This document shows, one piece after another, positions 4,019 through 55,827 of a stretch of DNA of 64,000 nt (positions within the stretch are counted from its first letter, which is position 1; each line of letters opens with the position of its first letter). Under the pieces are notes generated by a model, which worked only from the letters and a program-made list of their open reading frames with translations, ran no database searches and had not been told where the DNA came from. The stretch comes from Rhodanobacteraceae bacterium. GTDB lineage: Bacteria > Pseudomonadota > Gammaproteobacteria > Xanthomonadales > Rhodanobacteraceae. The position numbers were made by a program, and so were the translations under genes. The stretch lies in contig DASUJD010000058.1 of assembly GCA_036279455.1 (NCBI GenBank), forward strand, positions 3,548 to 67,547. Reading direction: 5' to 3'.

Positions 4019-4500
4019 AAATCCACGCCACCCAGCAGCATCGTCTCGCCAAGGTTTTTGCCGCCGCCAAGGATGTGGCCGTTGGAGACGTGCCGCAGCA
4101 TCACCACGAAATGACCGTCCTGCCAGCCGGCGCTTGTCATGAATTCGAACCGGCTGGACAGCGCGTCGGTGCGGGCGCTGGTGACGGCCAGTTGCTCGCC
4201 CACGAACCAGTGGCGGTTGGCCGCGACGATGCGCACGCCGCCAGCGGCAAGGAAAACCGGGTGATGCAGATCGTCCACACGGGTGCGGCGTGAATCCACC
4301 CAGCCGATGGTACCGATGGGATCGAAATGAGCGTGGCCGTCGGGGGGACTGTCGCGAAACGCGCTGATGAACGCCGCGCCGGTGGTTCGTCCCGACGACG
4401 TCATGCTGGGACCGACGGTGAAATCGAGGCCCGTGGCCAGCGCCGGCGCACATGCCGTGAGGCAAACTGCCACAATCAACCCGGAACCGATGCCTTTCAT
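4015..4500 (-). CDS. Acyloxyacyl hydrolase / PagL-like lipid A deacylase (lipoprotein-like signal)
   Basis: Start at MKGIGSGLIVAVCLTAC. C-terminal H-V-S-N-G...E motif resembles the PagL His/Ser/Glu site. Its stop overlaps the convergent sulfurtransferase stop. Confidence 0.6.
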   Translation of the reverse strand: MKGIGSGLIVAVCLTACAPALATGLDFTVGPSMTSSGRTTGAAFISAFRDSPPDGHAHFDPIGTIGWVDSRRTRVDDLHHPVFLAAGGVRIVAANRHWFVGEQLAVTSARTDALSSRFEFMTSAGWQDGHFVVMLRHVSNGHILGGGKNLGETMLLGGVDF

Positions 4501-8047: not shown

Positions 8048-9595
8048 ATGGCTTCCACTGCTGCCACCGCGACCGGATTTGTCGGAGAATTCCGGCCTCC
8101 CAGTCACGGTCTTACGGTGGTCGGCTTGTCGCTGGCGACGTTCATGCAGGTGCTGGACCTCACCATCGCCAACGTGTCGCTGCCGACCATTGCGGGCAAC
8201 CTCGGCGCCAGTCAGGACCAATCCACCTGGGTGATCACCTCGTTCACGGTCTGCAATGCGATTGCGCTGCCGCTGACCGGGTTCCTCACGCGCCGCTTCG
8301 GCGAGGTCAAGCCGTTCATCGTCGCGACCCTGCTGTTTTCGCTGTTCTCGATGATGTGCGGATTCGCCACCAGCCTCGGCATGCTGGTGGTGTTTCGCGC
8401 GCTGCAGGGCGCGATGGCCGGGCCGATGTACCCGATCACGCAGAGCCTGATGGTGTCGCTGTATCCCGGACACAAGCGCGGTACCGCGCTGGCGATGCTG
8501 GCGATGATCGCGATCTGCGGGCCGATCATCGGGCCCATGCTGGGCGGCTGGATTACCGAGACCTATTCCTGGCACTGGATCTTCTTCATCAACGTACCGG
8601 TCGGCCTGTTCGCGGCCGCGGTGGTTGCGTCGCAGATGCGCGGTCGCCCCGAGCACATCGACAAACCGCGCGTCGACAAGGTCGGGCTGGTTACCTTGAT
8701 CCTCGGCGTCGGCGCGCTGCAGATTCTGCTCGACAAGGGCAACGAGCTCGACTGGTTCCATTCCACCACCATCGTGGTATTGGCGATCGTTGCTGCGATT
8801 TCATTGACGGTATTCCTGATCTGGGAATTCACCGACCATGAACCGATCGTGGACTTTCGCCTGTTCAAGCACCGCAACTTCGCGGCGGGTACGCTGGCGA
8901 TGGTGCTGGCGTACGCGATGTTCTTTTCCACCAGCCTGCTGATCCAGTTGTGGATGCAATCGACGCTCGGCTACACCTCGATCTGGGCCGGTATCGTGTC
9001 GGCGCCGATCGGCGTGTTTCCGTTGTTGCTGAGTTTCATCATCGGCAAATATGCAACGCGCTTCGACCTGCGCTGGTTCGCATCGTTCTCGTTCCTGGTG
9101 ATCGGACTGACCTGCTTCATGCGCGGCGGTTTCAATACCGATGTCGACGTCTACCACGTGGCCATGGTGCAGTTGATCCAGGGCCTCGGTGTCGCCTTCT
9201 TCTTCCTGCCGATCCTCACCATCCTGTTGTCCGACCTGAGTGGACGCGACGTGTCGGCGGGCTCGGGACTCGCAACCTTCCTGCGTTCGCTGGGCGGCAG
9301 CTTCGCCGTCTCCATCGTGACGTACCTGTGGGAACGCGGCAGCGCGATCAATCACGCCAATCTCGCCGAACACGTCAACGATTATTCCTCGCAGGTGCGG
9401 CACAGCATCGCAGCGACCGGCGGCCATGTTCGGCAATACGTCGCCGGCATCAACCACGAAGTTACCCGGCAGGCCGCACAGATTTCCTTCAATCATCTGT
9501 TCGTGGTGCTCGGCTTCATGTTCCTGGGCCTGATCGCCGTGGTGTGGTTTGCCAAGCCGCCGTTCATCAAAAAGAGTGCCCCCGCAGGGCACTGA
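8048..9595 (+). CDS. emrB: DHA2-family MFS drug efflux permease (EmrB/QacA type), copy 1
   Basis: 515 aa, 14-TM-type MFS. Motifs ...LDLTIANVSLPTIAGNLGAS.DQSTWVITSF... and ...GWITETYSWHWIFFINVPVG.... Confidence 0.9.
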   Translation: MASTAATATGFVGEFRPPSHGLTVVGLSLATFMQVLDLTIANVSLPTIAGNLGASQDQSTWVITSFTVCNAIALPLTGFLTRRFGEVKPFIVATLLFSLFSMMCGFATSLGMLVVFRALQGAMAGPMYPITQSLMVSLYPGHKRGTALAMLAMIAICGPIIGPMLGGWITETYSWHWIFFINVPVGLFAAAVVASQMRGRPEHIDKPRVDKVGLVTLILGVGALQILLDKGNELDWFHSTTIVVLAIVAAISLTVFLIWEFTDHEPIVDFRLFKHRNFAAGTLAMVLAYAMFFSTSLLIQLWMQSTLGYTSIWAGIVSAPIGVFPLLLSFIIGKYATRFDLRWFASFSFLVIGLTCFMRGGFNTDVDVYHVAMVQLIQGLGVAFFFLPILTILLSDLSGRDVSAGSGLATFLRSLGGSFAVSIVTYLWERGSAINHANLAEHVNDYSSQVRHSIAATGGHVRQYVAGINHEVTRQAAQISFNHLFVVLGFMFLGLIAVVWFAKPPFIKKSAPAGH

Positions 9596-11479: not shown

Positions 11480-12373
11480 ATGATGAAATGGTTTCTGGGC
11501 ATCCTGCTATTGAGCATGCTTTCCCCTGTCCACGCTGCACGACAAGAAGGCTTCACGCAGGGCGCGGACAAGGTGCGGATCCACTATCTGCAGTCGGGGC
11601 CTGCTCATGCCAGGCACACACTGCTGCTGATTCCCGGTTGGCGCATCAGCGCGTCGATCTGGTCACGGCAGCTTGAGCGTTTTGCTGCGCAGGGTGACCG
11701 GGTCGTGGCGATCGACCCGCGATCACAGGGCAAGTCGAGCATGGTGCCGGCCGGGAATGCGCCGGAGGATCGCGCAGCGGACATCCAGCGGGTCATTGCT
11801 TCGCTGCACTTGAGGCATGTGATCCTGGTGGGATGGTCGCAGGGCGCCCAGGACGTGGCCGCCTACGTCAACCGATTTGGCACGAATGCGGTGGATGCGC
11901 TGGTACTGGTCGACAGCCCCGTCAGCGCCGGCCCCGCCGACGTCGCGCTGAATCCCGGTTTCATCAAGGTCATCGCAGCGGGCATGGGCACCTATGCGAA
12001 AAGTCCGAGGGCGTATTCCGACGGAATGATGCGGGCGATCATGCACGCGCCGCCCCAAGGGTTGTCGTTCCAGTCCCTGGACGATACGGCGATGAAAACC
12101 CCAGTGGACACGGGTATCTCGATGCTGACGCAGGATCTGTTCACCACCGATCGCCGCCCTTACCTGAAAAAATTCGACAAGCCCACGCTGGTAATCGCCT
12201 CCGGCGAGAGCCCGCTGCTCGATGCCCAGCAGCAAATGGCCAGGCAACTGCCGCACGCGAGATTCCGGATCATCCGGAACGCATCGCACGCGGTGTTCGT
12301 CGATCAACCCGATGTTTTCGACAAGCTGATCATGGAATTCATCGATTCGCTTGATCCGAAGAGCGGCCAGTGA
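11480..12373 (+). CDS. Secreted alpha/beta-fold hydrolase
   Basis: 297 aa with a signal-like N-terminus. Nucleophile elbow GWSQG, C-terminal ...NASHAVFVDQP.... Confidence 0.75.
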   Translation: MMKWFLGILLLSMLSPVHAARQEGFTQGADKVRIHYLQSGPAHARHTLLLIPGWRISASIWSRQLERFAAQGDRVVAIDPRSQGKSSMVPAGNAPEDRAADIQRVIASLHLRHVILVGWSQGAQDVAAYVNRFGTNAVDALVLVDSPVSAGPADVALNPGFIKVIAAGMGTYAKSPRAYSDGMMRAIMHAPPQGLSFQSLDDTAMKTPVDTGISMLTQDLFTTDRRPYLKKFDKPTLVIASGESPLLDAQQQMARQLPHARFRIIRNASHAVFVDQPDVFDKLIMEFIDSLDPKSGQ

Positions 12374-12675
12374 GTGTTCATCGAGCCAAATGGCGTGCGT
12401 CTGTTCGCAACTGCGGGTTGTTGCGTAAAACAGGGCGCATGCGACGAGTGCGATGACGCCGTGCCCGAAGTTGCGACAACCGTCTGCGTGCATGTTTTCT
12501 TCACGGGCGTGATGGGACCATCTTGCCGTTTCCATTCCGATGGCAATCTGGATGAGCTTGGGATGATCTGATCAAACATCGGTTCCGTCACTCATGCGGA
12601 GGCGGCCCGTGTTTGCAGGGCTGCAAGCGCGAACGCCGCAATCAAGGTTTCACGAAGTACTGGAAGAGAACTTGC

Positions 12676-14202: not shown

Positions 14203-14236
14203 AGTGCTCATCAAACGCCCGATGTTTTACGCTCCT

Positions 14237-14299
14237 CCCGAGTCCCGAGTCCCGAGTCCCGAGTCCCGAGTCCCGAGTCCCGAGTCCCGAGTCCCGAGT
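14237..14299. repeat. Nine exact tandem copies of CCCGAGT (G-rich GGGACTC on the minus/transcribed-sense strand)
   Basis: Counted directly: 63 nt, no mismatch. Begins 1 nt after the TGA of the DUF4139 gene. Confidence 0.95.
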
Positions 14300-14300
14300 C

Positions 14301-15749
14301 TCACAAGTCCTGGGCGGTCCAGTTGTAGCGCACGCTGTACGTGAGCGTGGTGCTGCCATTCGCCGGTACCGGTACGCGGAACTCCAGCAGTTGCGGCGTT
14401 TGCTTCGAGGGTTTGATGCTGGAAGACGTCACGCTCCACTCGCGCCAGCGGTTGGGGTGTTCGCGCACCGTCACCATCCGTGCGGAATCGCCGCCGTTGC
14501 TGAGCGTGACCTTGTACGACTCGTTCATCGTGTGTGCCTTGGCGTCGACGTGGAACGCGGTGCGTTCGTGGCTGGCACGCAGGTCGAAGCTCTGGCCGAG
14601 TTGCACGGCGACGCGCTGGCCCTTCGGTGTGTCGGCGACGTTGCCCTCGCCCAGCAGCGCCGGCGCGCCGGAATGATCGACTGTCCACGCGTGCAAGGTG
14701 CCGGCGGGCAGGGCATCAGGCGCGATGAAGGCGAGCGTGCTCGCGATCGGTCTGTCCTGATAATTTTGCGCGCCGTAATCATTGGTGTTCGGTTTGGGCG
14801 GATAACCCGAACCACCATCATCGACGATGTATTCGCGCTGGCAGGAAAGCTGCCGCTCCGGGTATAGCGGCGTCAGCGTCACGGTGCCATTGGGCAGATT
14901 CACCGCACCCTGCAGCGTGAAGCTGCGATAGTCGCCCAGCGATGCCTGCTCGGGCATCGCCGCGGCCGCCATCGGCGCAGGCGCCCTGGCCATGCTGTAC
15001 ATGCGCACGCGGTCGCCGAGGTTGGGTTGCCCTGCGACCAGTTTGATCGTGGCATCGTTGAAATCACGTCCGCTTCGGTTGGCGACGCTGGCTTCCGGTT
15101 TGAAATCCATACGGCAGGTGCGGCCGTTCGACAACGTCGCGGCGTAGGCGGCGCGCCAGCCGAGCCCCGACGTCATGTAGGTGAGGCGAGCCTTGCGCCG
15201 GCCCGTCGACTTTGCGTTCACGGTCAGACGCAGGCTGCTGCGGCCGATGACGGAACCTGTCGGCACCGTCATCGACGCGTACCGGTGCACGAAATGCACC
15301 TTGCCGTCCTGCGTGCGGATCAGTGCGCCACCGTCGCGCCCCCAGCCGAGCAGGGTGCCGTGCAAACTGCTTGCGCCCGCCCCGGCAGCGGTACCGCTGG
15401 TGAAGACGTCCACGCGCTGCCCGATCGCAGCCTCCAGCGGATGTATCACGCGCACCTGTTGCCCCTGCAGCACCACACCGGCAGCCGGATCCAATGTCAC
15501 GGTCATCGTCTCCGGGTCGGCGGCTGCCGGCAAGTCGCCGATCTGGAGCTCGTGGGTCCCGGCGGCGAGCTCCACTTGCCGCTGTTCACTCACCAGTGCG
15601 TGGCCGGCATTCAACGTGCCTGCGGAACTGGCTGAAAACAGCGCGTCGTTGTCGGCGTGGTAGATGGTCAGGCTGGGTGGCTCGGCGGCGAACATGACGG
15701 GGGTGGCCAGCAGCGCGACGAGCGCGGCACAAGGCAATCGGCGGGGCAT
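14301..15749 (-). CDS. DUF4139 domain-containing secreted protein
   Basis: Start at MPRRLPCAALVALLATPVMFA (signal-like). Beta-rich ~480 aa protein with the overall look of the DUF4139 family. Family call is moderate. Confidence 0.55.
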   Translation of the reverse strand: MPRRLPCAALVALLATPVMFAAEPPSLTIYHADNDALFSASSAGTLNAGHALVSEQRQVELAAGTHELQIGDLPAAADPETMTVTLDPAAGVVLQGQQVRVIHPLEAAIGQRVDVFTSGTAAGAGASSLHGTLLGWGRDGGALIRTQDGKVHFVHRYASMTVPTGSVIGRSSLRLTVNAKSTGRRKARLTYMTSGLGWRAAYAATLSNGRTCRMDFKPEASVANRSGRDFNDATIKLVAGQPNLGDRVRMYSMARAPAPMAAAAMPEQASLGDYRSFTLQGAVNLPNGTVTLTPLYPERQLSCQREYIVDDGGSGYPPKPNTNDYGAQNYQDRPIASTLAFIAPDALPAGTLHAWTVDHSGAPALLGEGNVADTPKGQRVAVQLGQSFDLRASHERTAFHVDAKAHTMNESYKVTLSNGGDSARMVTVREHPNRWREWSVTSSSIKPSKQTPQLLEFRVPVPANGSTTLTYSVRYNWTAQDL

Positions 15750-15830
15750 GGCGTGTCTCCCTGGTGGCGTTGCGTGCTGCCATCGATGATAACCGCTGCG
15801 CCTGAATCGAAGCGACGGCACAAGCCTCGT

Positions 15831-17567
15831 TCAAGTCGAGGATTGCACGCTGTCGAGCAGCGCCGTGATGGCCTCGCTGTCGCGTGCGCGCAGCAGGCGT
15901 GGGGCCAACGCACGCAGCGCCCGGTAGTCACAATGCGACAGCGCGTCGCGTTGCGCCAGGATGCGGTCCGGCAGCATGCTGAAATCTTCGAGGCCCAGCG
16001 CAACCAGCACCGACGCGAATGTGGTGTCCCCGGCGATTTCTCCGCACAGGCATACCTCCTTGCGGGCCATCCGCGAGCGTCCAATCACGTATGCCAGCAT
16101 TCGCAAGACGGCCGGGTGCGCCGGCCGGTAGAGCTTGCCCAGCTGATCGTTGTTGCGATCAGCTGCCAGCACGTATTGGGTCAGATCGTTGCTGCCGATC
16201 GCCAGAAAGTCGGCGACTTCCAGCAATGCGCGCACGTTGATGGCAGCGGCCGGCACCTCGACCATCGCACCCAGCTCGAACTGGTCGGGAATCTCGTGAC
16301 CGGCCGTGCGCAGGTCGCGCGCGCATTCTTCCAGCAACCGCCGTACTTCGACCAGTTCGGCTGCGTCGGTGATCATCGGCACCAGGATGCGCAGTGGTCC
16401 GTAACAGCTCGCCCGCAGGATGGCGCGCAGCTGCGTCACCAACACGTCCAGATGTCGCAGCGACAGGCGCACGCCGCGTATGCCGAGCGCCGGGTTCGGT
16501 TCGGATGCCACCTCCAGGCCTGCGGCATCGGCCTTGTCGGCGCCGAGGTCGAGCGTGCGGATCGTCACCGGAAGCCCGCCGGCGCTCAGCACGGCGTCGC
16601 GATAGGCGGCAAGCTGTTGTTCCTCGTCCGGCAATCCGTCATGTGAGAGAAACAGGAATTCGGTGCGGTACAGGCCGATGCCTGCAACGCCGAGTCCGCG
16701 CGCACGTTCGATGTCTTCGGGTCGTTCGGCGTTGGCGAACAGGCGCAGCTTGTGGCCGTCGCGGGTCAGGGTGCGGGTGCCGGCCAGTTGCGCGAGGCGC
16801 TGCCCCTCGCGCATGGTTTCGCGTTGCCAGTTGCGGTATTGGGCAAGATCCTGCGCGGCGGGATGGACGATGATTTCACCGCGCACGCCGTCGACCAGCG
16901 CGAGATCGCCGTCGCGCAGATCCTCGAGCACGCCTTCCACGTTCACCAACATGGGCAGGTGCAGGCTGCGCGCGAGGATCGAACTGTGCGAGTAGGGGCT
17001 GCCGGAGCCGGCCGCCACCGCGAGGATGCCGTGGCTGGCCATCTGTGCCAGTTCACCGGGTGCCACGCTCTCGGTCACCAGGATTTCGCCCACGCGGGTC
17101 GCGAGTTTTTTTTCCTCGTTGCTGGCCTGGCGTGTCAGTGCGCTCTGCACGCGAGCGATCACATGATCGACGTCTTCGCCGCGACTGCGCAGATAAGGGT
17201 CATCCATCTTGTCGAACACCGCGACCAGACGGTCGCGCTGGGCCTTCAGCGCCGCCGCGGCGCGGTAGTGGCCCTTGCGGATCATCGCGCGCAAGCCCTC
17301 GATCAGCTCGGGATCGTCCAGCAATTGGGCGTGCGCGTCGATGAATTCGCCGACCTCGCGTGCCAGCGCGCCATGCAGCTTGCGGCGCAACTCGACCATG
17401 TCCTCGCGGGCCAGCGCGAAGGCACGCTCCAACCGCGCGATTTCGTCCTCGATTTCCGAATCGGGCAGTGGCGTGAAGTCGATGCTGAAGCGTGCCGGAT
17501 GCTCAAGACGCACGCGTCCGAGCGCCATTCCGGGCGCGGCGGGATTGCCCGTGAAGACGCGCCTCAT
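15831..17567 (-). CDS. ptsI: Phosphoenolpyruvate-protein phosphotransferase (PTS Enzyme I, no GAF domain)
   Basis: 578 aa. ...GSPYSHSSILARSL... phospho-His region and ...IGSNDLTQY... PEP-utilising C-terminal domain. Confidence 0.9.
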   Translation of the reverse strand: MRRVFTGNPAAPGMALGRVRLEHPARFSIDFTPLPDSEIEDEIARLERAFALAREDMVELRRKLHGALAREVGEFIDAHAQLLDDPELIEGLRAMIRKGHYRAAAALKAQRDRLVAVFDKMDDPYLRSRGEDVDHVIARVQSALTRQASNEEKKLATRVGEILVTESVAPGELAQMASHGILAVAAGSGSPYSHSSILARSLHLPMLVNVEGVLEDLRDGDLALVDGVRGEIIVHPAAQDLAQYRNWQRETMREGQRLAQLAGTRTLTRDGHKLRLFANAERPEDIERARGLGVAGIGLYRTEFLFLSHDGLPDEEQQLAAYRDAVLSAGGLPVTIRTLDLGADKADAAGLEVASEPNPALGIRGVRLSLRHLDVLVTQLRAILRASCYGPLRILVPMITDAAELVEVRRLLEECARDLRTAGHEIPDQFELGAMVEVPAAAINVRALLEVADFLAIGSNDLTQYVLAADRNNDQLGKLYRPAHPAVLRMLAYVIGRSRMARKEVCLCGEIAGDTTFASVLVALGLEDFSMLPDRILAQRDALSHCDYRALRALAPRLLRARDSEAITALLDSVQSST

Positions 17568-17833
17568 GCGCCCTCGTCGAACTTGCGATCGAACAAACGG
17601 GCGACCGCATCCAGTGCTTCGGCTTCGTCCGGACCGTCCACGCGCAGCGTGAGCGGCGTTCCGATGCCGGCCGCCAGCATCATCACGCCCATGATGCTCT
17701 TGGCGTTGACTTCGCGACCGCCGCCGATCAGCCAGATCGTGGATTTGAAGCCCTGCACCAGCTGCACCAGTTTCGCCGAGGCGCGCGCGTGCAGGCCGAG
17801 CTTGTTGCTGACCACGATTTCCTTTTCGATCAT
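17564..17833 (-). CDS. HPr-family phosphocarrier protein
   Basis: Start at MIEKEIVVSNKLGLHARASAKLV (HPr His-15 context). Overlaps the EI start by 4 nt. Confidence 0.85.
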   Translation of the reverse strand: MIEKEIVVSNKLGLHARASAKLVQLVQGFKSTIWLIGGGREVNAKSIMGVMMLAAGIGTPLTLRVDGPDEAEALDAVARLFDRKFDEGA

Positions 17834-17884
17834 CGGGACGTTCCGGGGCGGGAGTGATGACATCCCGCTACGTTACCAAAAGAA

Positions 17885-18079
17885 GGGACCTGGGACTGGG
17901 GACCAGGGGCCAGTCGAAAAAGAGGGTGGGGCAAGATGCAGCCATGTGCGCACCGGGACCAGGACATTGCGTGCCAGCTCCCGGAATCTCGTTTTGCTTC
18001 ATCTGGCCTGCGCATCGGGCGCCGGGTGCGAAAACGCCAAGCAGGTTACGCTCTTCCGGTCCCCGGTCCCCGGTCCCGG
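17885..18079. repeat. Heptamer-armed inverted-repeat element (degenerate copy), MITE/REP-like, no ORF
   Basis: Left arm GGGACCT GGGACTG GGGACCA GGGGCC. Right arm CCGGTCC x3 + CGG. The core shares collinear blocks with the nuoF-nuoG element. Confidence 0.75.
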
Positions 18080-18085
18080 CTCTCG

Positions 18086-18541
18086 TCACACCTTGTCGAT
18101 GCAAATGCCGCCCCGTCCACCGCTGGCGGCGACTTCGGCCAGTTCGTCAAGCGGTTTGTCAGGGTAGTTGAGCACCCTGAGCAGCATCGGCAGGTTCAGT
18201 CCCGACACGCAGCGCGCACGCACGCCGAGACCGGCGAGCTGGTTGGCGATGTTGCAGGGCGTGGAGCCGTACAGATCCGAAAGCACCAGTACACCGCCGC
18301 CATGGTCGAGCGTGCGCGCTGCGCGGGCAGCGGCCGGCAGCACGGCGCCGGGGTCATCGTCGGCGCCCATTTCCATCGCGTCGAGCCGGCACGGCATGTG
18401 CGGCATCACATGCCGGGCGGCAGTGATGAGCGCGCGGCCGATCTCCTCGTGCGTCAGCAGCAAAATGCCCGCCGTCGCGGTGGTCTGGTCTTGACGGAGT
18501 GCGGAAACGTTGGTCATGGGTGGAGATGGGATGGCAGTCAT
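18086..18541 (-). CDS. PTS EIIA component, mannose/fructose family
   Basis: 151 aa. ...GILLLTHEEIGRAL... with the His in the EIIA(Man) position. The start may instead be the internal MTNV (18517). Confidence 0.75.
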   Translation of the reverse strand: MTAIPSPPMTNVSALRQDQTTATAGILLLTHEEIGRALITAARHVMPHMPCRLDAMEMGADDDPGAVLPAAARAARTLDHGGGVLVLSDLYGSTPCNIANQLAGLGVRARCVSGLNLPMLLRVLNYPDKPLDELAEVAASGGRGGICIDKV

Positions 18542-18582
18542 CGGGGGCGTGCAAGTTCCGGTCCAACCGGACCGGTCAACGC

Positions 18583-19470
18583 CTATTCCAGTTCGCGGTG
18601 AAAGGTGAGCACCTGATCGCGGCTGGCCCGGTAGTGCTCGGCGAGGCGTTCGGCGAGGTAAACCGAGCGGTGCCGGCCTCCGGTACAGCCAATGGCGACG
18701 GTCAGATAGCCCTTGTCTTCACTTTCGAAACGTGGCAGCCATGCGTCCAGGAATCGTTGGATGTCGGCCAGGTATTGTACTACCAAAGCCTGGCTGTCCA
18801 GGAATTCGCAAACAGGCGCATCCTGTCCGGAGAAAGGGCGCAAGCGCGGATCCCAATGGGGGTTGGGAAGACAGCGCGCATCGAACACGAAATCGCAATC
18901 AGGCGGCAACCCGCGGCCGTAGGCGAACGACTCGAACAACAGGGTCAGCCCGCCCCCGGCGCCGCCGTAATCGGTGGCGATGCGGCGGCGCAACTGGTGC
19001 ACGTTGGTGTCGCTGGTGTCGATCGAACGGTTGGCGATGGCCAGCAACGGATGCAGGCGGCGGCGTTCCTCCGCAAGCGCATCGATCAGGGAGCGGCCGT
19101 CGTCGGACAAGGGATGGCGGCGACGGGTGTAGGCGTAGCGTTTCAGCAGCACCGAGTCGCTGGATTCCAGAAACACCAACTCGGCGTCGGCGCCCGCTTC
19201 CGCGAGCCTGGAAAGCGCTTCCGGCATGCGATCGAGATCGCCCTGGCTGCGCACGTCCACGCCCACGGCGATGCCGGAAAGCGTGCCGCGGTCGCCGTCG
19301 GTCAGGGCGCGATAGAGCGACGGCAACAGCCCGGTCGGCAGGTTGTCCACGCAATAGAAGCCGAGATCCTCGAACGCACGCAGCGCGACGGTTTTGCCGG
19401 CTCCGGAGAGGCCGGTCAGTACCACCATGCGGGTGGCCAGGGGGTGCGAATCGGAATACGTGTCTGACAT
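18583..19470 (-). CDS. rapZ: RNase adapter protein RapZ (YhbJ)
   Basis: 295 aa. Walker A GLSGAGKT, C-terminal ...IGCTGGRHRSV.... Confidence 0.9.
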   Translation of the reverse strand: MSDTYSDSHPLATRMVVLTGLSGAGKTVALRAFEDLGFYCVDNLPTGLLPSLYRALTDGDRGTLSGIAVGVDVRSQGDLDRMPEALSRLAEAGADAELVFLESSDSVLLKRYAYTRRRHPLSDDGRSLIDALAEERRRLHPLLAIANRSIDTSDTNVHQLRRRIATDYGGAGGGLTLLFESFAYGRGLPPDCDFVFDARCLPNPHWDPRLRPFSGQDAPVCEFLDSQALVVQYLADIQRFLDAWLPRFESEDKGYLTVAIGCTGGRHRSVYLAERLAEHYRASRDQVLTFHRELE

Positions 19471-32921: not shown

Positions 32922-33980
32922 TCATGCAATCTGTACACGCGCATTGTTGCCGGCAACCACCACCTCGCCGATGGTCCAGCTTGCGAGGCCGGATTGCGCG
33001 AGCGCATCGCGTGCGGCGGTCACGTCACCGGGTGCGAGGATCAGGGTGAAGCCGATCCCGCAATTGAAGGTGCGCCACATTTCCGCGCGCGGCAGCTTGC
33101 CCTCGCGTTGCAACCAGTCGAACACGGCCGGCAGTTTCCATGTCGAGGAATCGATCGCGAGGCCGAGCCCGTCCGGCACCACCCGGATGATGTTTTCGCT
33201 GAGGCCGCCGCCGGTGATGTGGGCCATGCCGTGCACGACCGGGACCCGGGGCTCGGGACTCGGGACCCGCAAAAGCTCCAGGACGGGTTTGACGTAGATG
33301 GTCGTCGGCGCCATCAGGGCATCGGCCAGCGTCACGCCCCCGATATCCATGCCGAAGGGCGAACCCGCGCGTTCTACGATCTTGCGGATCAGCGAGTAAC
33401 CGTTCGAGTGTGGCCCGCTGGACGCGACGCCGAGAACCACGTCGCCTGCACGGATCGCACTGCCGTCGATCAGTTCCGATTTTTCCACTGCGCCGACGTT
33501 GAAGCCGGCGAGGTCGTATTCGCCGGGCGGATACATGTCGGGCATCTCGGCGGTTTCGCCGCCGATCAGCGCGCAACCGGCCAGTTCGCAGCCCTTGGCG
33601 ATGCCGCCCACCACCGCGACCGTGGTGTCCACGTCGAGCTTGCCGGTCGCGAAATAGTCGAGGAAGAACAGCGGCTCGGCGCCCTGCACCAACACGTCAT
33701 TGACGCACATGCCCACGAGGTCGATGCCGATGGTGTCGTGGCGGTTCAACTGCTGCGCGAGTTTCAACTTGGTGCCGACCCCGTCGGTGCCCGAAACCAG
33801 CACCGGTTCGCGGTATTTTTTCGAGAGATCGAACAGCGCACCGAACCCGCCGAGGCCGCCCATCACCTCGGGGCGCAAGGTTTTCGCGACCAGCGGCTTG
33901 ATGCGTTCGACCACCGCATTGCCGGCGTCGATGTCCACGCCCGCGGCGCGGTAGGAAAGGGCTTCGTCACGGGAGCTCAC
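32922..33980 (-). CDS. purM: Phosphoribosylformylglycinamidine cyclo-ligase (AIR synthetase)
   Basis: GTG 33980 gives [21 protein letters not shown]..., the usual PurM N-terminus. ...MAHITGGG.... The longer ORF to 34256 is not supported. Confidence 0.9.
33241..33268. repeat. Four degenerate heptamers (GGGACCC GGGGCTC GGGACTC GGGACCC) inside purM
   Basis: Read directly from the sequence. Translated in frame on the minus strand as ...[10 protein letters not shown].... Confidence 0.8.
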
Positions 33981-34080
33981 AGGTTTTCCGGCAAACGTTC
34001 GGTAACCGCGGAATCGGCAATGATAGACGCTGGGGCTGCGATTGGGCAGACTGGGGGTGTTAGAACGGAGGTCTGTGGTC

Positions 34081-34782
34081 ATGCTGCGAATTTCGGTGTC
34101 CCTGCTGCTGGTGCTGGGCGTGGCGGTGGCTGCATCGGCCCAGACTGCCTCGCCATCCCCGAACGCGAGCGCTGCGCCGCCGCCCGCTGCGGTTGCGCAG
34201 GCCAATCCATACTCTGCCACGGTGCCGGTTGCCGGTACCAGTGACGACCAGCGCAATACCGCAATCGCCGTCGCGCTGACAGACGTTTTGCAGAAGTTGT
34301 CGCCGGGTTTCGTGGCCAGTTCCGACGAGCTGTCCAGGGCGTCCGGCTATGTCCGGGATTTCCATTATCTCCGCGCGGCCACGAACAGCGGATTGGAGCT
34401 GCAAGTGGATTTCGACCCCGGTGCGATCGGACATCTGATTGCCGCGAACCCGGCAGCAAGCACGGTTGCGGGCGCGATGCCACCGGCGAGCGGTTCGAGC
34501 GCGGCGGCGGCAATGGCCCCGCGGAGCGGAAGCGCCACGCTGTGGGTCGGCGGCGTCGACAACAGTCGTGCGTTCGCCAGCCTGCTTGCCACCTTGCGGA
34601 ATGACACTTCGCTCCACGATGTCACACCGGTGGGCGCCGAGGACGATGGTGTGTTGCTGCACCTGAGTTTCGATCAGCCGTTGACGACGGTGCTGGCGGC
34701 GCTGGAGACCCCGGCAGACCACCTGACGCAGGCGCCGCGGCCACATCCTGGCGCCGATGCATCGTTGCACTGGGTGCCCTGA
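34081..34782 (+). CDS. DUF2066 domain-containing protein (secreted)
   Basis: Start at [20 protein letters not shown]. ...[32 protein letters not shown].... Divergent from purM, as I recall for this family. Confidence 0.65.
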
Positions 34783-43046: not shown

Positions 43047-43132
43047 GCCCAGGTGGCGGAATTTGGTAGACGCACTACCTTGAGGTGGTAGCGGGTAACT
43101 CCGTGGGGGTTCGAGTCCCCCCTTGGGCACCA
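43047..43132 (+). tRNA. tRNA-Leu (anticodon GAG), class II with long variable arm, CCA encoded
   Basis: Hand-folded. Acceptor GCCCAGG/CTTGGGC (one G-U pair), anticodon stem CTACC/GGTAG with loop TTGAGGT, T-arm GGGGG-TTCGAGT-CCCCC, discriminator A, CCA. Confidence 0.9.
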
Positions 43133-47074: not shown

Positions 47075-48388
47075 ATGGCATACGGTCCCGAGCCCGCTGA
47101 ACACCAGGTCGTCTACACCACGCTCCATTTCGACGAGCCGTGGACGATCGAGAATTACCGCAAGACCGGCGGCTGGCAGGCGTGGGAGAAGATCCTTGCC
47201 GAAAAGACCGATCCGGCCTCGATCGTGGACGAGCTGAAGAAGAGTTCGCTGCGCGGACGCGGCGGCGCCGGCTTCCCGACCGGCATGAAATGGTCGTTCA
47301 TGCCGCGCAACGCGCCGGGCCAGAAATACATCCTGTGCAATTCGGATGAATCCGAACCCGGCACCTGCAAGGACCGCGACATCCTGCGCTTCAATCCGCA
47401 CGCGGTGCTGGAAGGCATCGCGATCGCCTGTTACGCGACGGGTTCCACCGTGGCCTACAACTATTTGCGCGGCGAGTTCCACCACGAACCTTTCGAGCAC
47501 ATCGAGCAGGCTCTGCACGAAGCGGAAGCCGCCGGGCTCCTGGGCACGAACATCAAGGGCAGCGGCATCGACGTCACGATCCACAACGCATTGGGTGCGG
47601 GTGCCTACATCTGCGGCGAGGAAACCGCGTTGATGGAATCGCTGGAAGGCAAGAAGGGCTGGCCGCGCTACAAGCCGCCGTTCCCCGCCAACTTCGGCCT
47701 GTACGGCCGGCCCAGCACCATCAACAACACCGAAACCTATGCGTCGGTGCCGGCGATCCTGCGCAAGGGCGCCGACTGGTTCTTGAACTTGGGCAAGCCC
47801 AACAATGGCGGTCCCAAGATTTTTTCGGTTTCGGGTCACGTCAACAAGCCGGGCAACTACGAAGTCCCCCTCGGCCTCCCGTTCGCGGAACTGCTCGAAA
47901 TGGCGGGTGGCGTGCGCAACGGCCACAAGCTGAAGGCGGTGATCCCGGGCGGCTCGTCGATGAAGATCCTGAAGGCCGACAAGATGCTGGAATGCAACAT
48001 GGACTTCGACTCGCTGCGTGCCGCGGGATCGGGTCTGGGTTCGGGCGCCGTGATCGTGATGGACGAGACGACGTGCATGGTGCGCGCTTGCGAGCGCATC
48101 GCGCGCTTCTATCACATGGAATCCTGCGGCCAGTGCACACCGTGCCGCGAGGGCACCGGCTGGATGCACCGCGTGTTGACCCGCATCGTCCATGGCGGCG
48201 GCACACCGGAAGATCTGCATCGCCTGAAAGCCGTCGCCGGCCAGATCGAAGGCCACACCATTTGCGCCTTCGGTGAAGCGGCGGCGTGGCCGGTACAGGC
48301 CTTCCTCGCCAATTTCTGGGACGAGTTCGAGTACTACTGCAAGAACGGGCGTTCGATGGTGGATTCACGCGTGGAGATTGCGGCATGA
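47075..48388 (+). CDS. nuoF: NADH-quinone oxidoreductase subunit F
   Basis: 437 aa. ...GRGGAGFPTG.KWSF... (FMN/NADH site), ...ESCGQCTPCREG.... Confidence 0.95.
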   Translation: MAYGPEPAEHQVVYTTLHFDEPWTIENYRKTGGWQAWEKILAEKTDPASIVDELKKSSLRGRGGAGFPTGMKWSFMPRNAPGQKYILCNSDESEPGTCKDRDILRFNPHAVLEGIAIACYATGSTVAYNYLRGEFHHEPFEHIEQALHEAEAAGLLGTNIKGSGIDVTIHNALGAGAYICGEETALMESLEGKKGWPRYKPPFPANFGLYGRPSTINNTETYASVPAILRKGADWFLNLGKPNNGGPKIFSVSGHVNKPGNYEVPLGLPFAELLEMAGGVRNGHKLKAVIPGGSSMKILKADKMLECNMDFDSLRAAGSGLGSGAVIVMDETTCMVRACERIARFYHMESCGQCTPCREGTGWMHRVLTRIVHGGGTPEDLHRLKAVAGQIEGHTICAFGEAAAWPVQAFLANFWDEFEYYCKNGRSMVDSRVEIAA

Positions 48389-48397
48389 ATAACTTCA

Positions 48398-48540
48398 GGG
48401 ACCGGGGACCGGGGACCGGGGACCGGAGCTGCCGTGATGCGTACGCGCACTCGTGGTTGGTGCGCTTGATACATGGCATCAATAAAAAATCTGCCAGCTT
48501 GCGTGACTTTGCCGGTCCCCGGTCCCCGGTCCCCGGTCCC
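48398..48540. repeat. Heptamer-armed inverted-repeat element: (GGGACCG)4 - 87-nt core - (CGGTCCC)4, MITE/REP-like, no ORF
   Basis: Counted directly. Arms 48398-48425 and 48513-48540 are exact reverse complements (28 nt). Confidence 0.9.
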
Positions 48541-48551
48541 GGAGTTTTCGC

Positions 48552-50954
48552 ATGAGCGCCCAACCGAAAGACACCGCTCCGCCCGTGGAGATGGTCGAGT
48601 TCGAGATCGACGGCCATCCGGTCAGCGCGCCCAAGGGCTCGACGATCATCCAGGCCACCGATGCCGCGAAGATTCCGGTGCCACGTTTTTGCTATCACGA
48701 AAAGTTGCCGATCGCCGCCAATTGCAGGCAATGCATGGTGGAAGTGGAGATGGGTGGCAAGCCGGTGCCGAAGCCGCAGCCTGCCTGCGCGACTCCCGTC
48801 GCGGCGGGCATGAAGGTCTACACGCGCTCGCCGAATGCCATGAAGTGGCAGCGCAACACGATGGAGTTCCTGCTGATCAACCATCCGCTGGATTGCCCGA
48901 TCTGCGATCAGGGCGGCGAGTGCGAGCTGCAGGATGTTTCGATGGGTTATGGACGCTCGGTGACGCGCTTCACCGAGCGCAAGCGCAGCGTGACCGACGA
49001 AAACATTGGTCCGCTGGTTGCGACCGAGATGACCCGCTGCATCCACTGCACACGTTGCGTGCGTTTCGTGGGCGAGATCGCGGGCACCCATGAGCTTGGC
49101 GACATGAGCCGCGGCGACAGCCACGTGATCGGCACCTACATCGGCCGCACCATCAAGTCCGAGCTGTCCGGCAACGTGATTGACGTGTGTCCGGTCGGCG
49201 CGCTCACCGACAAGGTGTTCCAGTTCAAGGCGCGCGCGTGGGAACTGATCGCCAAGCCGTCGATCGGCTACCACGATGCGCTGGGTTCCAACCTGTGGCT
49301 GCATACCAAGTACGGGCAGACGCTGCGTGCCGTGCCGCGCGACAACGAAGCCATCAACGAATGCTGGTTGTCCGACCGCGACCGCTACAGCCACCAGGGT
49401 TTGTACGCGGAGGATCGCGCGCAGAGGCCGATGATCCGAAAGGGCGGCGAGCTGGTCGAAGTCGAATGGGATGAAGCCATCGCGTTCGTCGCGGACGGTT
49501 TGAAGAAGGTCGGCGGCGATGTGGCCGCGCTGGTCGCTTCGATGGCATCGTGCGAGGAAGGTGCGCTGCTTGCGCAATTGTTGCGCGGGCTCGGCAGCGG
49601 GCGCATCGACCATCGCCTGCGCGTGCAGGACTTCAGCGACGGTGGTCCGTCCGGTGCCGCATTCGAAATGCCGGTGGCGGACGTTGGCAAGGTATCGGCG
49701 GCACTGATCATCGGCTGCAATCCGCGCCATGAAATGCCGCTGCTTGGCCATCGGCTGCGCCACGCCAGCCGCCACGACGCGGCGAAGCATCCGGCATCGA
49801 ATCCGGCGCACTACGATATTTCCGCGGTGCAGGGCGCGAAGATCCATGCGATCAACCCCGTGCACTTCGATTTCAACTTCGACCTCGCCGGCGAAGTCGC
49901 GGTGGCGCCGCAACATCTGGTGGATGCTACGTTGCGGATGGCGAAGGGGTCGGGCGTGTCGCTGGACGAGCATGCGTTGGCCGATGCCGTCGCTGCGGCC
50001 CCTGATGACGCCGATGCGCGCTCGTGGGCAGATGCGTTGCGCAATGCGGCATCCTCGGTGGTAATCCTGGGCGACGCGGCCACCCAACATCCGCAGGCGT
50101 CATGGCTGCGCGTGCTGGCGCGCGGCATCGCCAGGGCCACCGGTAGTGCGTTCAACGAATTGCCGTCGGGCGCCAACGCCGTCGGCTTGGCACGTGTGGG
50201 TGCGCAGTCGCCCGGTGGGGCGAAAGCGATACTGGAAAATGCGCCGAAGGCGTTGATTACCTGGCAAACCGGCCCCCACGATGCGTTTTCGCCGGTCGCC
50301 TACGACAAGGCCAGCGAGGCTGCGGAGTTTTACGTCCACGCGGGCGCCTACGTCTGCGAAGGCGCCAGGCACACCGCCGATGCCGTGCTGCCACTGGGCT
50401 TGCCTCCGGAAATCGACGGCACCTACGTGAACGTCGATGGCGTCGTACAGGTAATCGCGGCGGGTTCGACCTTGCCGGGCGATGCGCGGCCGGGCTGGAA
50501 GGTATTGCGCGCGTTGGGGGCGGCGCTGGGCGTGAAAGGGTTCGACTTCTCTGACATCGGTGAGGTGCGTGACGCTGTGGGGGACGTGTCGGGACCGGGG
50601 ACCGGGGACCAGGAATCGGGGCAGCGATTGCCGACGCGTACATCGATACCGAATGGCATGGTGACGCGCGTCGCCACGGTCGGCATCTACCGCACCGATG
50701 CGGTGGTACGTCGCGCCAAGGCGCTGCAGGCGCACCCGCTGAATCGCGCGCCGGCCTTGCGCATCTGTGCGGACGATGCGCGTGCACTGGCGCTGCTGAG
50801 CGGCATCAAGGCCGACGTCAATGGCGTGCAATTGATGGTGGTTGTCGATGCCGCGGTGCCCAAAGGCTGCGCCTGGATCGAAGCGGGACACGCCGGCACC
50901 GGATCGCTGCCGCCGTACGGCGCGGCGCTGACCATCAAGGCAGTGGGCGCATGA
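48552..50954 (+). CDS. nuoG: NADH-quinone oxidoreductase subunit G
   Basis: 800 aa. N-terminal 2Fe-2S/4Fe-4S Cys clusters (...[19 protein letters not shown]..., ...[18 protein letters not shown]...). Confidence 0.95.
50591..50611. repeat. Three heptamers (GGGACCG GGGACCG GGGACCA) in frame inside nuoG
   Basis: Read directly: 21 nt translated as GPGTGDQ. Confidence 0.85.
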
Positions 50955-55514: not shown

Positions 55515-55516
55515 GG

Positions 55517-55787
55517 CTGGCAATGAACGACGAGGCCCGCGAGACGTTTGCAGGTTGGGCTGATGCCGGGTTCCCCGGCGGAAGCCCAACACGTCCGTTC
55601 TCCCGTTGGGCTTCGCATGCAGCCGTTCAGCCCAACCTACGCGCGCTGGCAATGAACGACGAGGCCCGGGAGACGTTTGTAGGTTGGGCTGACGCCAGAT
55701 TCATCGGCGGAAGCCCAACATTCCCGTTGCGGCGTTGGGCTTCGCATGGAGCCGCTCAGCCCAATCTACGCGCTCAGCCCAACCTGC
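55517..55787. repeat. Two tandem ~129-bp units plus a partial third, each a GTAGGTTGGGCTGA...TCAGCCCAACCTAC REP/BIME-like palindrome
   Basis: Unit 1 starts at 55517, unit 2 at 55646 (period 129). Inner hairpins GAAGCCCAAC/GTTGGGCTTC. Extra terminal copy TCAGCCCAACCTGC at 55774-55787. Confidence 0.85.
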
Positions 55788-55799
55788 ATGCGTCGGGGT

Positions 55800-55827
55800 C
55801 CCGAGTCCCGAGTCTCGAGTCCCGGGA
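55800..55827. repeat. Heptamer array CCCGAGT CCCGAGT CTCGAGT CCCGGGA ending in the nuoM Shine-Dalgarno
   Basis: Read directly. GGGAG at 55824-55828, nuoM ATG at 55837. Confidence 0.8.

Follow-up and report, generated by a model that had tools for sequence, protein, structure and literature searches.

Introduction

Arrays of G-rich heptamers of the GGGAATC type were described by Rehm et al. in 2015 in the genomes of Xanthomonas campestris and X. axonopodis (PMC4692102). They prefer four units, are intergenic in 89-93% of cases, mostly between co-oriented open reading frames (ORFs), and adjoin stop or start codons, with the G-rich strand at most 50 bp after the stop where it is the coding strand, or at most 50 bp before the start where it is the non-coding one; two nearby convergent arrays, one on each strand, were counted in 70 and 75 cases in the two genomes (PMC4692102). 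The formation of G-quadruplexes (G4s) by the G strand and of i-motifs by the C strand was demonstrated in vitro, most of the arrays are transcribed, and neither an association with mobile elements nor a function or regulatory role was identified for them (PMC4692102). The present work concerns an element of two inverted heptamer arrays, (GGGACCG)4 and (CGGTCCC)4, in the spacer between nuoF and nuoG of a Rhodanobacteraceae bacterium; the whole analysed stretch of 64,000 nt is called the window, the coordinates are positions in it, and the L-numbers denote the related loci compared with it. The element probably belongs, as a single copy, to the dispersed palindromes of G-rich heptamer repeats that occur in Xanthomonadales and were reported from Xanthomonas in 2015; it arrived by insertion, nuoG would stay coupled to nuoF across it, and it is likely selfish or near-neutral. 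The first-pass annotation of this DNA could assign it to no named repeat family, a gap that is closed by the match to the G-rich heptameric repeats of Xanthomonas (PMC4692102).

The heptamer class dates from 2015, and reports of heptamer repeats in general go back to 1990 and 2007. According to Mrazek (2007), as far as summarised in PMC4679880, heptanucleotide repeats rank first in over-representation among the long simple repeats of many bacteria, X. campestris being one of them, and a survey of 2018 still describes the heptamer periodicity of intergenic DNA as functionally unexplained (PMC6344855). The architecture was thus already published in 2015, while the GGGACCG unit, the host family Rhodanobacteraceae, to both of which the class is extended, and the nuoF/G location are new here. 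The junction is a clean natural experiment, in which an essential operon junction exists in three states among close relatives, and it gives a testable model of operon tolerance, with a hairpin keeping the nuoG translation coupled to the nuoF termination.

The element at the nuoF-nuoG junction

The junction is composed of the following features, with the evidence in brackets.

47075-48388, plus strand: nuoF coding sequence of 437 aa with the stop TGA at 48386-48388 (ORF; the homologues are NuoF with Pfam Complex1_51K, SLBB and NADH_4Fe-4S; best match 92% identical)
48383-48388, plus strand: left copy of the duplicated GCATGA, which holds the nuoF stop codon (sequence; comparison with empty relatives)
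48389-48397, plus strand: left flank ATAACTTCA, in which AACUUC (48391-48396) pairs with GGAGUU (48541-48546) as a predicted anti-Shine-Dalgarno sequence (minimum free energy and centroid structures)
48398-48425, plus strand: left G-rich arm, (GGGACCG)4 (sequence, repeat searches)
48426-48512, plus strand: unique 87-nt core with an AT-rich centre, ending in CTTTGCC, the sub-terminal box (sequence, comparison with other copies)
48513-48540, plus strand: right C-rich arm, (CGGTCCC)4 (sequence, repeat searches)
48541-48549, plus strand: right flank GGAGTTTTC, in which GGAG (48541-48544) is the Shine-Dalgarno (SD) sequence of nuoG, located 7 nt before the ATG and, in the predicted fold, base-paired within the stem
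48550-48555, plus strand: right copy of the duplicated GCATGA, which holds the nuoG ATG at 48552 (sequence)
48552-50954, plus strand: nuoG coding sequence of 800 aa (ORF; Pfam Fer2_4, NADH-G_4Fe-4S_3, Fer4_Nqo3 and Molybdopterin)

Read directly from the sequence, both arms consist of four exact units, the right arm being the exact reverse complement of the left one. The first-pass annotation had described the inverted 7-mer arrays, the unique core without an ORF and the GGAG directly 3' of the right arm correctly to the base, and the ORF list likewise contains no element-specific ORF at the insert. Tandem Repeats Finder reports period 7, 4.1 copies and 100% match for each of the two arrays, and the repeat search returns inverted arms of 22 nt with 100% complementarity, together with a longer inverted repeat of 43 nt per arm (48384-48426 and 48512-48554) with 86% complementarity. 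The 14-mer GGGACCGGGGACCG, equal to two tandem units, occurs 10 times in the window with at most one mismatch against 0.06 expected from shuffles, a count reached in 0 of 100 shuffles, which confirms that the inverted arrays are real and far beyond chance. The G arm begins 9 nt past the nuoF stop and the C arm ends 11 nt ahead of the nuoG ATG; a CCC-GGAG junction equivalent to that of nuoG is seen in other copies located upstream of start codons.

Relation to the Xanthomonas heptamer class

The window copy agrees with the Xanthomonas arrays in the head-to-tail heptamers with the G-tract at positions 1-3 and A at position 4 (100% match on each strand), in the preferred number of units (4 + 4), in the convergent pairing and in the distance of at most 50 bp from the neighbouring ORFs, the last being true also for the window arrays at 14233, 17885/18057 and 55796. 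The narrower operational rule of Rehm et al., by which at least one unit is GGGAATC and the others are GGGANTN with T at position 6, excludes it, as its arrays contain no GGGAATC and the GGGACCG unit has C at position 6, and this unit is absent from the tables of that work (PMC4692102). However, the GGGACTC arrays of the window fit GGGANTN, GGGACTC units also occur inside the arrays of X. campestris pv. campestris (PMC4692102), and mixed arrays of the relatives link GGGACTC with GGGAATC or GGGATTC (L030, L016) and GGGAATC with GGGGACC (L164); therefore, the unit types grade into one another.

Apart from the unit and the host family, the window copy differs from the published class by the arms, which are perfectly complementary to each other and partly self-complementary via CCGG. 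The Rehm supplements list no nuo genes by name; intragenic heptamer pairs in purL are listed there (PMC4692102). The empty sites, the junction duplication and the nuo-operon hot spots seen here are not reported in that paper, and for the 14-mers of the window arrays no mention was found in the literature.

Empty and filled orthologous junctions

The nuoF-nuoG junction was extracted from 84 loci, 80 of them distinct. An exact counterpart of the window NuoF was not found in the protein collection; its best relatives, 92% identical, are uncultured Rhodanobacteraceae, and the named relatives are Dokdonella, Rhodanobacter, Luteibacter and Dyella. Among the named ones, Rhodanobacter sp. FW102-FHT14D07 (L041) and Dokdonella immobilis (L053) have a heptamer pair at nuoF/G, and the site of Dokdonella fugitiva (L046) is empty. 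In 49 of the 80, including near relatives at 90-92% NuoF identity (L001, L007, L009, L012), nuoF and nuoG overlap by 4 nt (ATGA) or 1 nt; 21 contain an inverted heptamer pair, and 10 carry other palindromic inserts without arrays, with the empty, heptamer-filled and otherwise filled states scattered over the NuoF tree. Nine of the 21 pairs are of the GGGAC(C/T)(C/G) type (L013, L017, L024, L026, L030, L032, L036, L045, L083) and twelve of the GGGAAT(C/G) or GGGATTC type, eight of the latter with a spacer of exactly 127 nt. The occurrence of the same junction as empty, heptamer-filled or otherwise filled in close relatives argues that the pairs arrive as insertions and are not grown from an existing spacer.

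The empty relatives read gc(c/g)GCATGAgcgc, where a single ATGA provides both the nuoF stop and the nuoG start. The alignment of the window with these sites leaves 167 extra bases, namely the 161-nt element (48389-48549) and a second copy of GCATGA, and shows the element to be an apparent insertion into the ancestral ATGA overlap with GCATGA duplicated on both sides; owing to this duplication both reading frames survive. The GC before the right-side ATGA is retained in 23 of the 30 filled junctions compared, and in the right copy it has no coding reason. A perfect duplication of 9 nt is found in L010 and L055, and one of 9 nt with a single mismatch in L064; a long duplication of about 16-22 nt including the SD sequence gives a mean identity of 11.3/22, close to GGAG plus ATGA plus chance, and is inseparable from selection for GGAG-N7-8-ATG.

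The first-pass annotation suspected a dispersed rather than a locus-specific structure and proposed to look for empty orthologous sites with target-site duplications. Both suggestions were borne out by the further copies in the window and in the relatives, and by the empty sites, with GCATGA duplicated in the window. Neither an absence of other copies nor an identical spacer in all relatives, which together would have marked a locus-specific structure, was found, and the element is dispersed and insertion-like.

The growth of the arrays in place by polymerase slippage at both ends of a pre-existing spacer, as a locus-specific process with nothing inserted as a unit, can be considered at this point. 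Slippage has been put forward to explain the general excess of heptanucleotide repeats in bacteria (Mrazek 2007, in the part summarised in PMC4679880; PMC4692102); the unit type changes in concert within arrays, and array-free spacers occupy the junction in L006, L008, L010, L011 and L064, which would make a two-step origin possible. However, the ancestral state is the ATGA overlap with no spacer, none of the array-free inserts of the relatives is homologous to the window core, and slippage alone leaves the strictly convergent orientation and the matched types of the two arms, presented below, unexplained. Such an origin is thus very improbable.

The non-heptamer inserts at nuoF/G are unrelated palindromes of 94-220 nt (L006, L008, L010, L011, L019, L033, L042, L049, L064, L003), among them a dispersed GTCATTCCGGC...GCCGGAATCC element in L010, L019, L033 and L042 and a CGCAAAGAA-repeat element in L003 and L010. 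In L006, L008 and L011 the first ~20 nt of nuoG recur past the nuoF stop, which suggests long junction duplications in these loci.

The nuoD/E and nuoL/M junctions of the relatives are likewise occupied by heptamer pairs, some with duplicated arm blocks, and the nuo operon is, as judged by these comparisons, a recurrent landing site of the pairs. The nuoD/nuoE pairs (~9100-9460) were seen in L030, L036, L041, L043, L044, L045, L053, L054, L066 and L076, the empty state being an ATGA/GTGA overlap, e.g., in L002, and the nuoL/nuoM pairs (~18450-18810) in L010, L026, L036 and L045.

An insert of the GGGAWT type with conserved flanks is present at nuoF/G in twelve loci of three separate NuoF clades, the spacer being exactly 127 nt in L002, L041, L043, L051, L054, L055, L067 and L076, 133 nt in L053 and L077, and 148 nt in L040 and L058. 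Close sisters of its carriers have empty sites (L070 beside L055, L037 beside L058). This distribution would imply either a precise loss that regenerates the ATGA overlap or a spread by recombination.

Arms and cores across the family

The tandem-repeat census covered 1.46 Mb (the first 85 loci and the window) and arrays of at least three copies. Period 7 is the commonest there, with 100 arrays against 67 of period 6 and 51 of period 9, and nearly all the period-7 arrays are GGGA(A/T/C)(T/C)N. A separate regular-expression census of 1.40 Mb of related Rhodanobacteraceae DNA gave 114 arrays, with a modal size of four G-tract units (50/114), and 36 convergent against 0 divergent pairs among the arrays at most 300 nt apart, the G-rich arm being first on either strand and the cores spanning 19-151 nt. 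The scan of metagenome contigs for (GGGACCG)4 matched at least 120 contigs; among the matches listed, the median G+C is 69% and the pairs are 45 convergent against 1 divergent.

Other copies have in common a sub-terminal box, which reads G(G/T)A(A/G)AGC on the inner side of the G arm and GCTYTT(C/A)C or GCTYTT(C/G)C on that of the C arm; in the nuoF/G copy of the window only the right box (CTTTGCC) is recognisable. The cores are unrelated between copies even in one contig (L017, L036, L013, L076, the window), and only the arms and the sub-terminal box of ~8-17 nt are shared; in pairwise comparison L017 and L032 have the only homologous cores. Neither window core gave a significant BLAST match in the 2.1 Mb of related loci, nor was the 27-nt central segment of the 87-nt core matched exactly in the metagenome contigs. 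The orthology of the elements of the window and of L013, which was considered, is unsupported by the core comparisons.

These cores bear on the possibility of a miniature inverted-repeat transposable element (MITE), in which the arrays would serve as terminal inverted repeats to which a transposase from another locus binds, with GCATGA as its target-site duplication. The inverted termini, the small size without an ORF, the direct duplication at the insertion site with empty orthologous sites, the nested or multiple arrays of L026 and L030, and the full pairs inserted in frame in purL are all consistent with it. However, internal sequence shared between copies, as a MITE would have, is missing from cores that are unrelated in the same genome next to perfect arms; the apparent duplication is not of one length across the events (4 to 9 nt or more), and the requirement for a stop, an SD sequence and a start confounds it; the purL insertions lack a duplication, solo arrays are common, and no association with mobile-element genes was found by Rehm et al. 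(PMC4692102). A MITE in this sense is therefore improbable, and the element appears insertion-like but no textbook MITE, with its unique cores, variable duplication length and common solo arms.

The two arms of one element are mostly of the same unit type, and elements within one genome can differ (L053, L051, L026). In one clade of the 127-nt family GGGAATC/GATTCCC has changed to GGGATTC/GAATCCC in all eight units with every pair kept, which is suggestive of selection for pairing. The arrays might instead be read as protein-binding sites, either operator or nucleoid-protein sites in DNA, or RNA sites for a GGA-recognising protein such as RsmA/CsrA. GGGA is indeed constant across the unit types, with positions 5-7 variable, and each unit brings one GGA. 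However, no candidate protein is known, the arrays lie within operons and even within coding sequences, the arm types co-vary for complementarity with no single fixed motif preserved, and the predicted RNA fold leaves no GGA motif unpaired; hence, this explanation can be given little credence.

Predicted RNA fold and proposed translational coupling

The RNA of 48380-48560 folds at -113.3 kcal/mol against -71.4 +/- 4.4 kcal/mol for dinucleotide shuffles (z = -9.45), in line with the long GC-rich stem anticipated by the first-pass annotation. The base of the predicted stem is formed by AACUUC:GGAGUU and CAUG:CAUG pairing in both the minimum free energy and centroid structures, so the SD sequence, noted earlier as adjoining the fold, stands against the stem and, in the predicted structure, inside it, and the nuoG SD and AUG are sequestered directly opposite the nuoF stop codon. 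The SD sequence of the 127-nt GGGAWT family lies likewise inside a predicted local CUCC...GGAG hairpin. An intrinsic terminator or attenuator was considered and rejected, as no terminator-like site was found in 48000-48900 and the stem is followed by UUCGCAUG, not by a U-tract; the scan of the same interval revealed no promoter-like site in or adjoining the element.

The arms on the nuo mRNA would zip into a helix of ~35 bp and loop out the core, and this helix would place the nuoG SD and AUG opposite the nuoF stop codon. A terminating ribosome holds roughly a dozen nt downstream of the A site single-stranded. With the nuoF stop located 9 nt ahead of the arm, a ribosome that finishes nuoF there would open the lower part of the stem and expose the ribosome-binding site of nuoG, and the coupling once given by the 4-nt overlap would be preserved through the RNA structure. 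Since the predicted hairpin buries the ribosome-binding site and the start of nuoG opposite the nuoF stop, the nuoG translation probably remains coupled to the nuoF termination. A perfect helix of at least 28 bp may also be a substrate of RNase III or a barrier to 3' exonucleases, with a possible cutting or stabilising of the transcript.

The G-quadruplex question

The first-pass annotation pointed to the G4/i-motif pattern of the arms; the formal motif of four G3-N4 repeats is present, whereas G4-aware RNA folding prefers the hairpin whether the arm is folded by itself or within the whole element. As RNA or as a displaced DNA strand, the left arm could act through its four G-tracts as a G4/i-motif switch that competes with the hairpin and tunes transcription or the nuoG translation, as proposed for the heptamer class by Rehm et al. 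(PMC4692102). The arm has the canonical motif, the modal four units are the minimum for a G4, and the related GGGAATC and GGGGA(C/T)T oligonucleotides form G4s in vitro and their complements i-motifs (PMC4692102); the G-rich arm coming first on both DNA strands, in all 36 pairs of the census and in 45 of 46 among the metagenome matches listed, can be added to these. However, G4-aware RNAfold, an energy model only, picks no G4, whether given the arm, the transcript as it stands before synthesis of the C arm, or the entire element, the arm alone preferring a CCGG-based hairpin (-15.7 kcal/mol) and the full element the -113 kcal/mol stem; the complementary C-rich arm is 87 nt away on the same transcript, and no regulatory role was found by Rehm et al. 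(PMC4692102). A switch of this kind is accordingly unlikely at nuoF/G. As the fully complementary GGGACCG arms should favour the hairpin over a G4, they offer a useful contrast for the G4-based explanations.

Weighing of the readings

The large purL gene of a Lysobacteraceae contig (L094) contains two full inverted pairs in frame (11644-11771 and 12361-12499), which are translated as loops of 43-47 residues of the form ...PASPGSRVPGPGSR. The PurL proteins of X. hortorum and Pseudoxanthomonas bear loops encoded by GGGAATC and GGGATTC units (GNGESGIGN..., IPDSRLPIPG) at the same two positions. The inverted heptamer pairs might constitute a true insertional element class, with G4-capable arms, an AAAGC...GCTTT box and an arbitrary core, written by a dedicated machinery onto stop-start junctions (nuoD/E, nuoF/G, nuoL/M) or in frame into loops (purL), and surviving via the coupling by their own hairpin or as a harmless loop. 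We regard this as a tentative proposal, rather doubtful at present; if true, it would account for the predominance of heptamers among the intergenic tandem-repeat periods of many bacteria (PMC6344855).

Several observations weigh against the reading of the nuoF/G element as a near-neutral insertion of the Xanthomonas type with preserved coupling. Compared with the closest empty relative L206 (93% protein identity), the purL pairs of L094 replace surface loops of 21-30 nt with no clean duplication; therefore, the duplication at nuoF/G may partly reflect selection that keeps the stop, the SD sequence and the start. The preference for four units is exactly what a G4 requirement predicts, the hairpin model has no obvious explanation for it, and it is the strongest point in favour of a G4 role. 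Both the proposed coupling and the RNase III step derive from the predicted fold and general ribosome geometry. The covariation from A-U to U-A in the 127-nt family is confined to a single clade and equals one evolutionary event, and perfect arms around cores unrelated within one genome are unlike a simple copy-and-paste element. With these points taken into account, the most likely reading is that of selfish or near-neutral DNA, which persists through its tolerated palindromic form and is not a dedicated regulator of nuoG.

Other heptamer arrays in the window

The scan by regular expression found eight GGGAC(C/T)N arrays in the window, including a second inverted pair. The pair and two solo arrays are as follows.

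17885-18077: second inverted pair, with the arms GGGACCT/GGGACTG/GGGACCA/GGGGCCA (17885-17912) and (CGGTCCC)3 (18057-18077) and a unique core of 144 nt
14233-14302, minus strand: coding-strand solo array made up of ~10 GGGACTC units, in contact with the stop of a DUF4139/DUF4140 gene (14301-15821, minus)
55796-55823, minus strand: solo GGGACTC-type array on the non-coding strand, ending 14 nt upstream of the nuoM ATG (55838) and running into GGGAGA

The second pair occupies the spacer between the genes of the phosphotransferase system protein EIIA-Man (18086-18541, minus) and HPr (17564-17863, minus), downstream of rapZ, and its geometry is like that of the nuoF/G copy, with the G arm 8 nt after the stop and the other arm ending 21 nt before the start. 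The array at 14233-14302 is the longest in the window, and the plus-strand sequence ahead of it is TTTTACGCTCC.

Arrays are also found within coding sequences. A three-unit GGGACCG array lies in frame within nuoG (50591-50625) and encodes 10 residues of a hypervariable NuoG linker; a four-unit array (4297-4324) occupies the same place in L013 (89% NuoF identity), and the closer relatives L007, L008 and L010 have no array there. Inside the purM-like gene of an aminoimidazole ribonucleotide (AIR) synthase (32925-34256, minus), a heptamer array with a GCAAAAGC box is present on the non-coding strand (33241-33268), translated just before a conserved motif and resembling a half element inserted in frame.

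The nuoL-nuoM spacer contains, next to the solo array at 55796-55823, two tandem units of 129 bp, 86% identical, that resemble repetitive extragenic palindromic (REP) sequences (55516-55773), being palindromes around GTTGGGCT...AGCCCAAC with a (G/T)TAGGTTGGGCTGA head each. The only match of the window to Rfam at the gathering threshold is a tRNA gene (43047-43129) upstream of the nuo operon.

Comparison with other known systems

The nuoG RNA motif of enterobacteria, reportedly described by Weinberg et al. in 2010 and included in Rfam, is said to be a conserved hairpin in the nuoF-nuoG spacer just upstream of nuoG. It shares the location with the window hairpin, with no similarity between them, and the identity of the two was rejected, as the covariance model gave no match at the gathering threshold or at E <= 10. 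The cmscan search of 48300-48650 returned no Rfam family at the gathering threshold, and at E <= 10 only chance microRNA-hairpin matches far below the gathering scores.

The cyanobacterium Nostoc PCC 7120 has GGGGA(C/T)T repeats, which are intergenic, near the ORF ends and G4-capable (PMC4692102). Read in tandem, GGGGACT is equal to (GGGACTG)n, one base off the GGGACTC and GGGACCG units of the window. However, the inverted pairs are rare in Nostoc, the arrays are much longer there (39-179 nt), and the genome is of low G+C and of another phylum. Heptanucleotide repeats of Calothrix, named STRR, were reportedly described by Mazel et al. in 1990.

The REP, BIME and REPIN sequences are dispersed extragenic palindromes mobilised by REP-associated tyrosine transposases (RAYTs), which occur in operons and at the 3' ends of genes, form inverted doublets, and whose hairpins in mRNA can stabilise the upstream transcripts. 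The heptamer family resembles them as dispersed palindromes that are present or absent between relatives. Unlike them, the window element has neither a GTAG-type head nor a single imperfect palindrome, a distinction from the GTAG-headed REPs already drawn in the first-pass annotation, and is built of tandem 7-mer arms with a long unique loop.

The Rickettsia palindromic elements (RPE), reportedly described by Ogata et al. in 2000, are conserved over the full length, whereas only the arms and the short sub-terminal box are conserved here, and the window copy, unlike RPE, is intergenic. Like RPE, the heptamer family places whole palindromic units in frame within housekeeping genes, whose proteins gain them as surface loops, as in purL.

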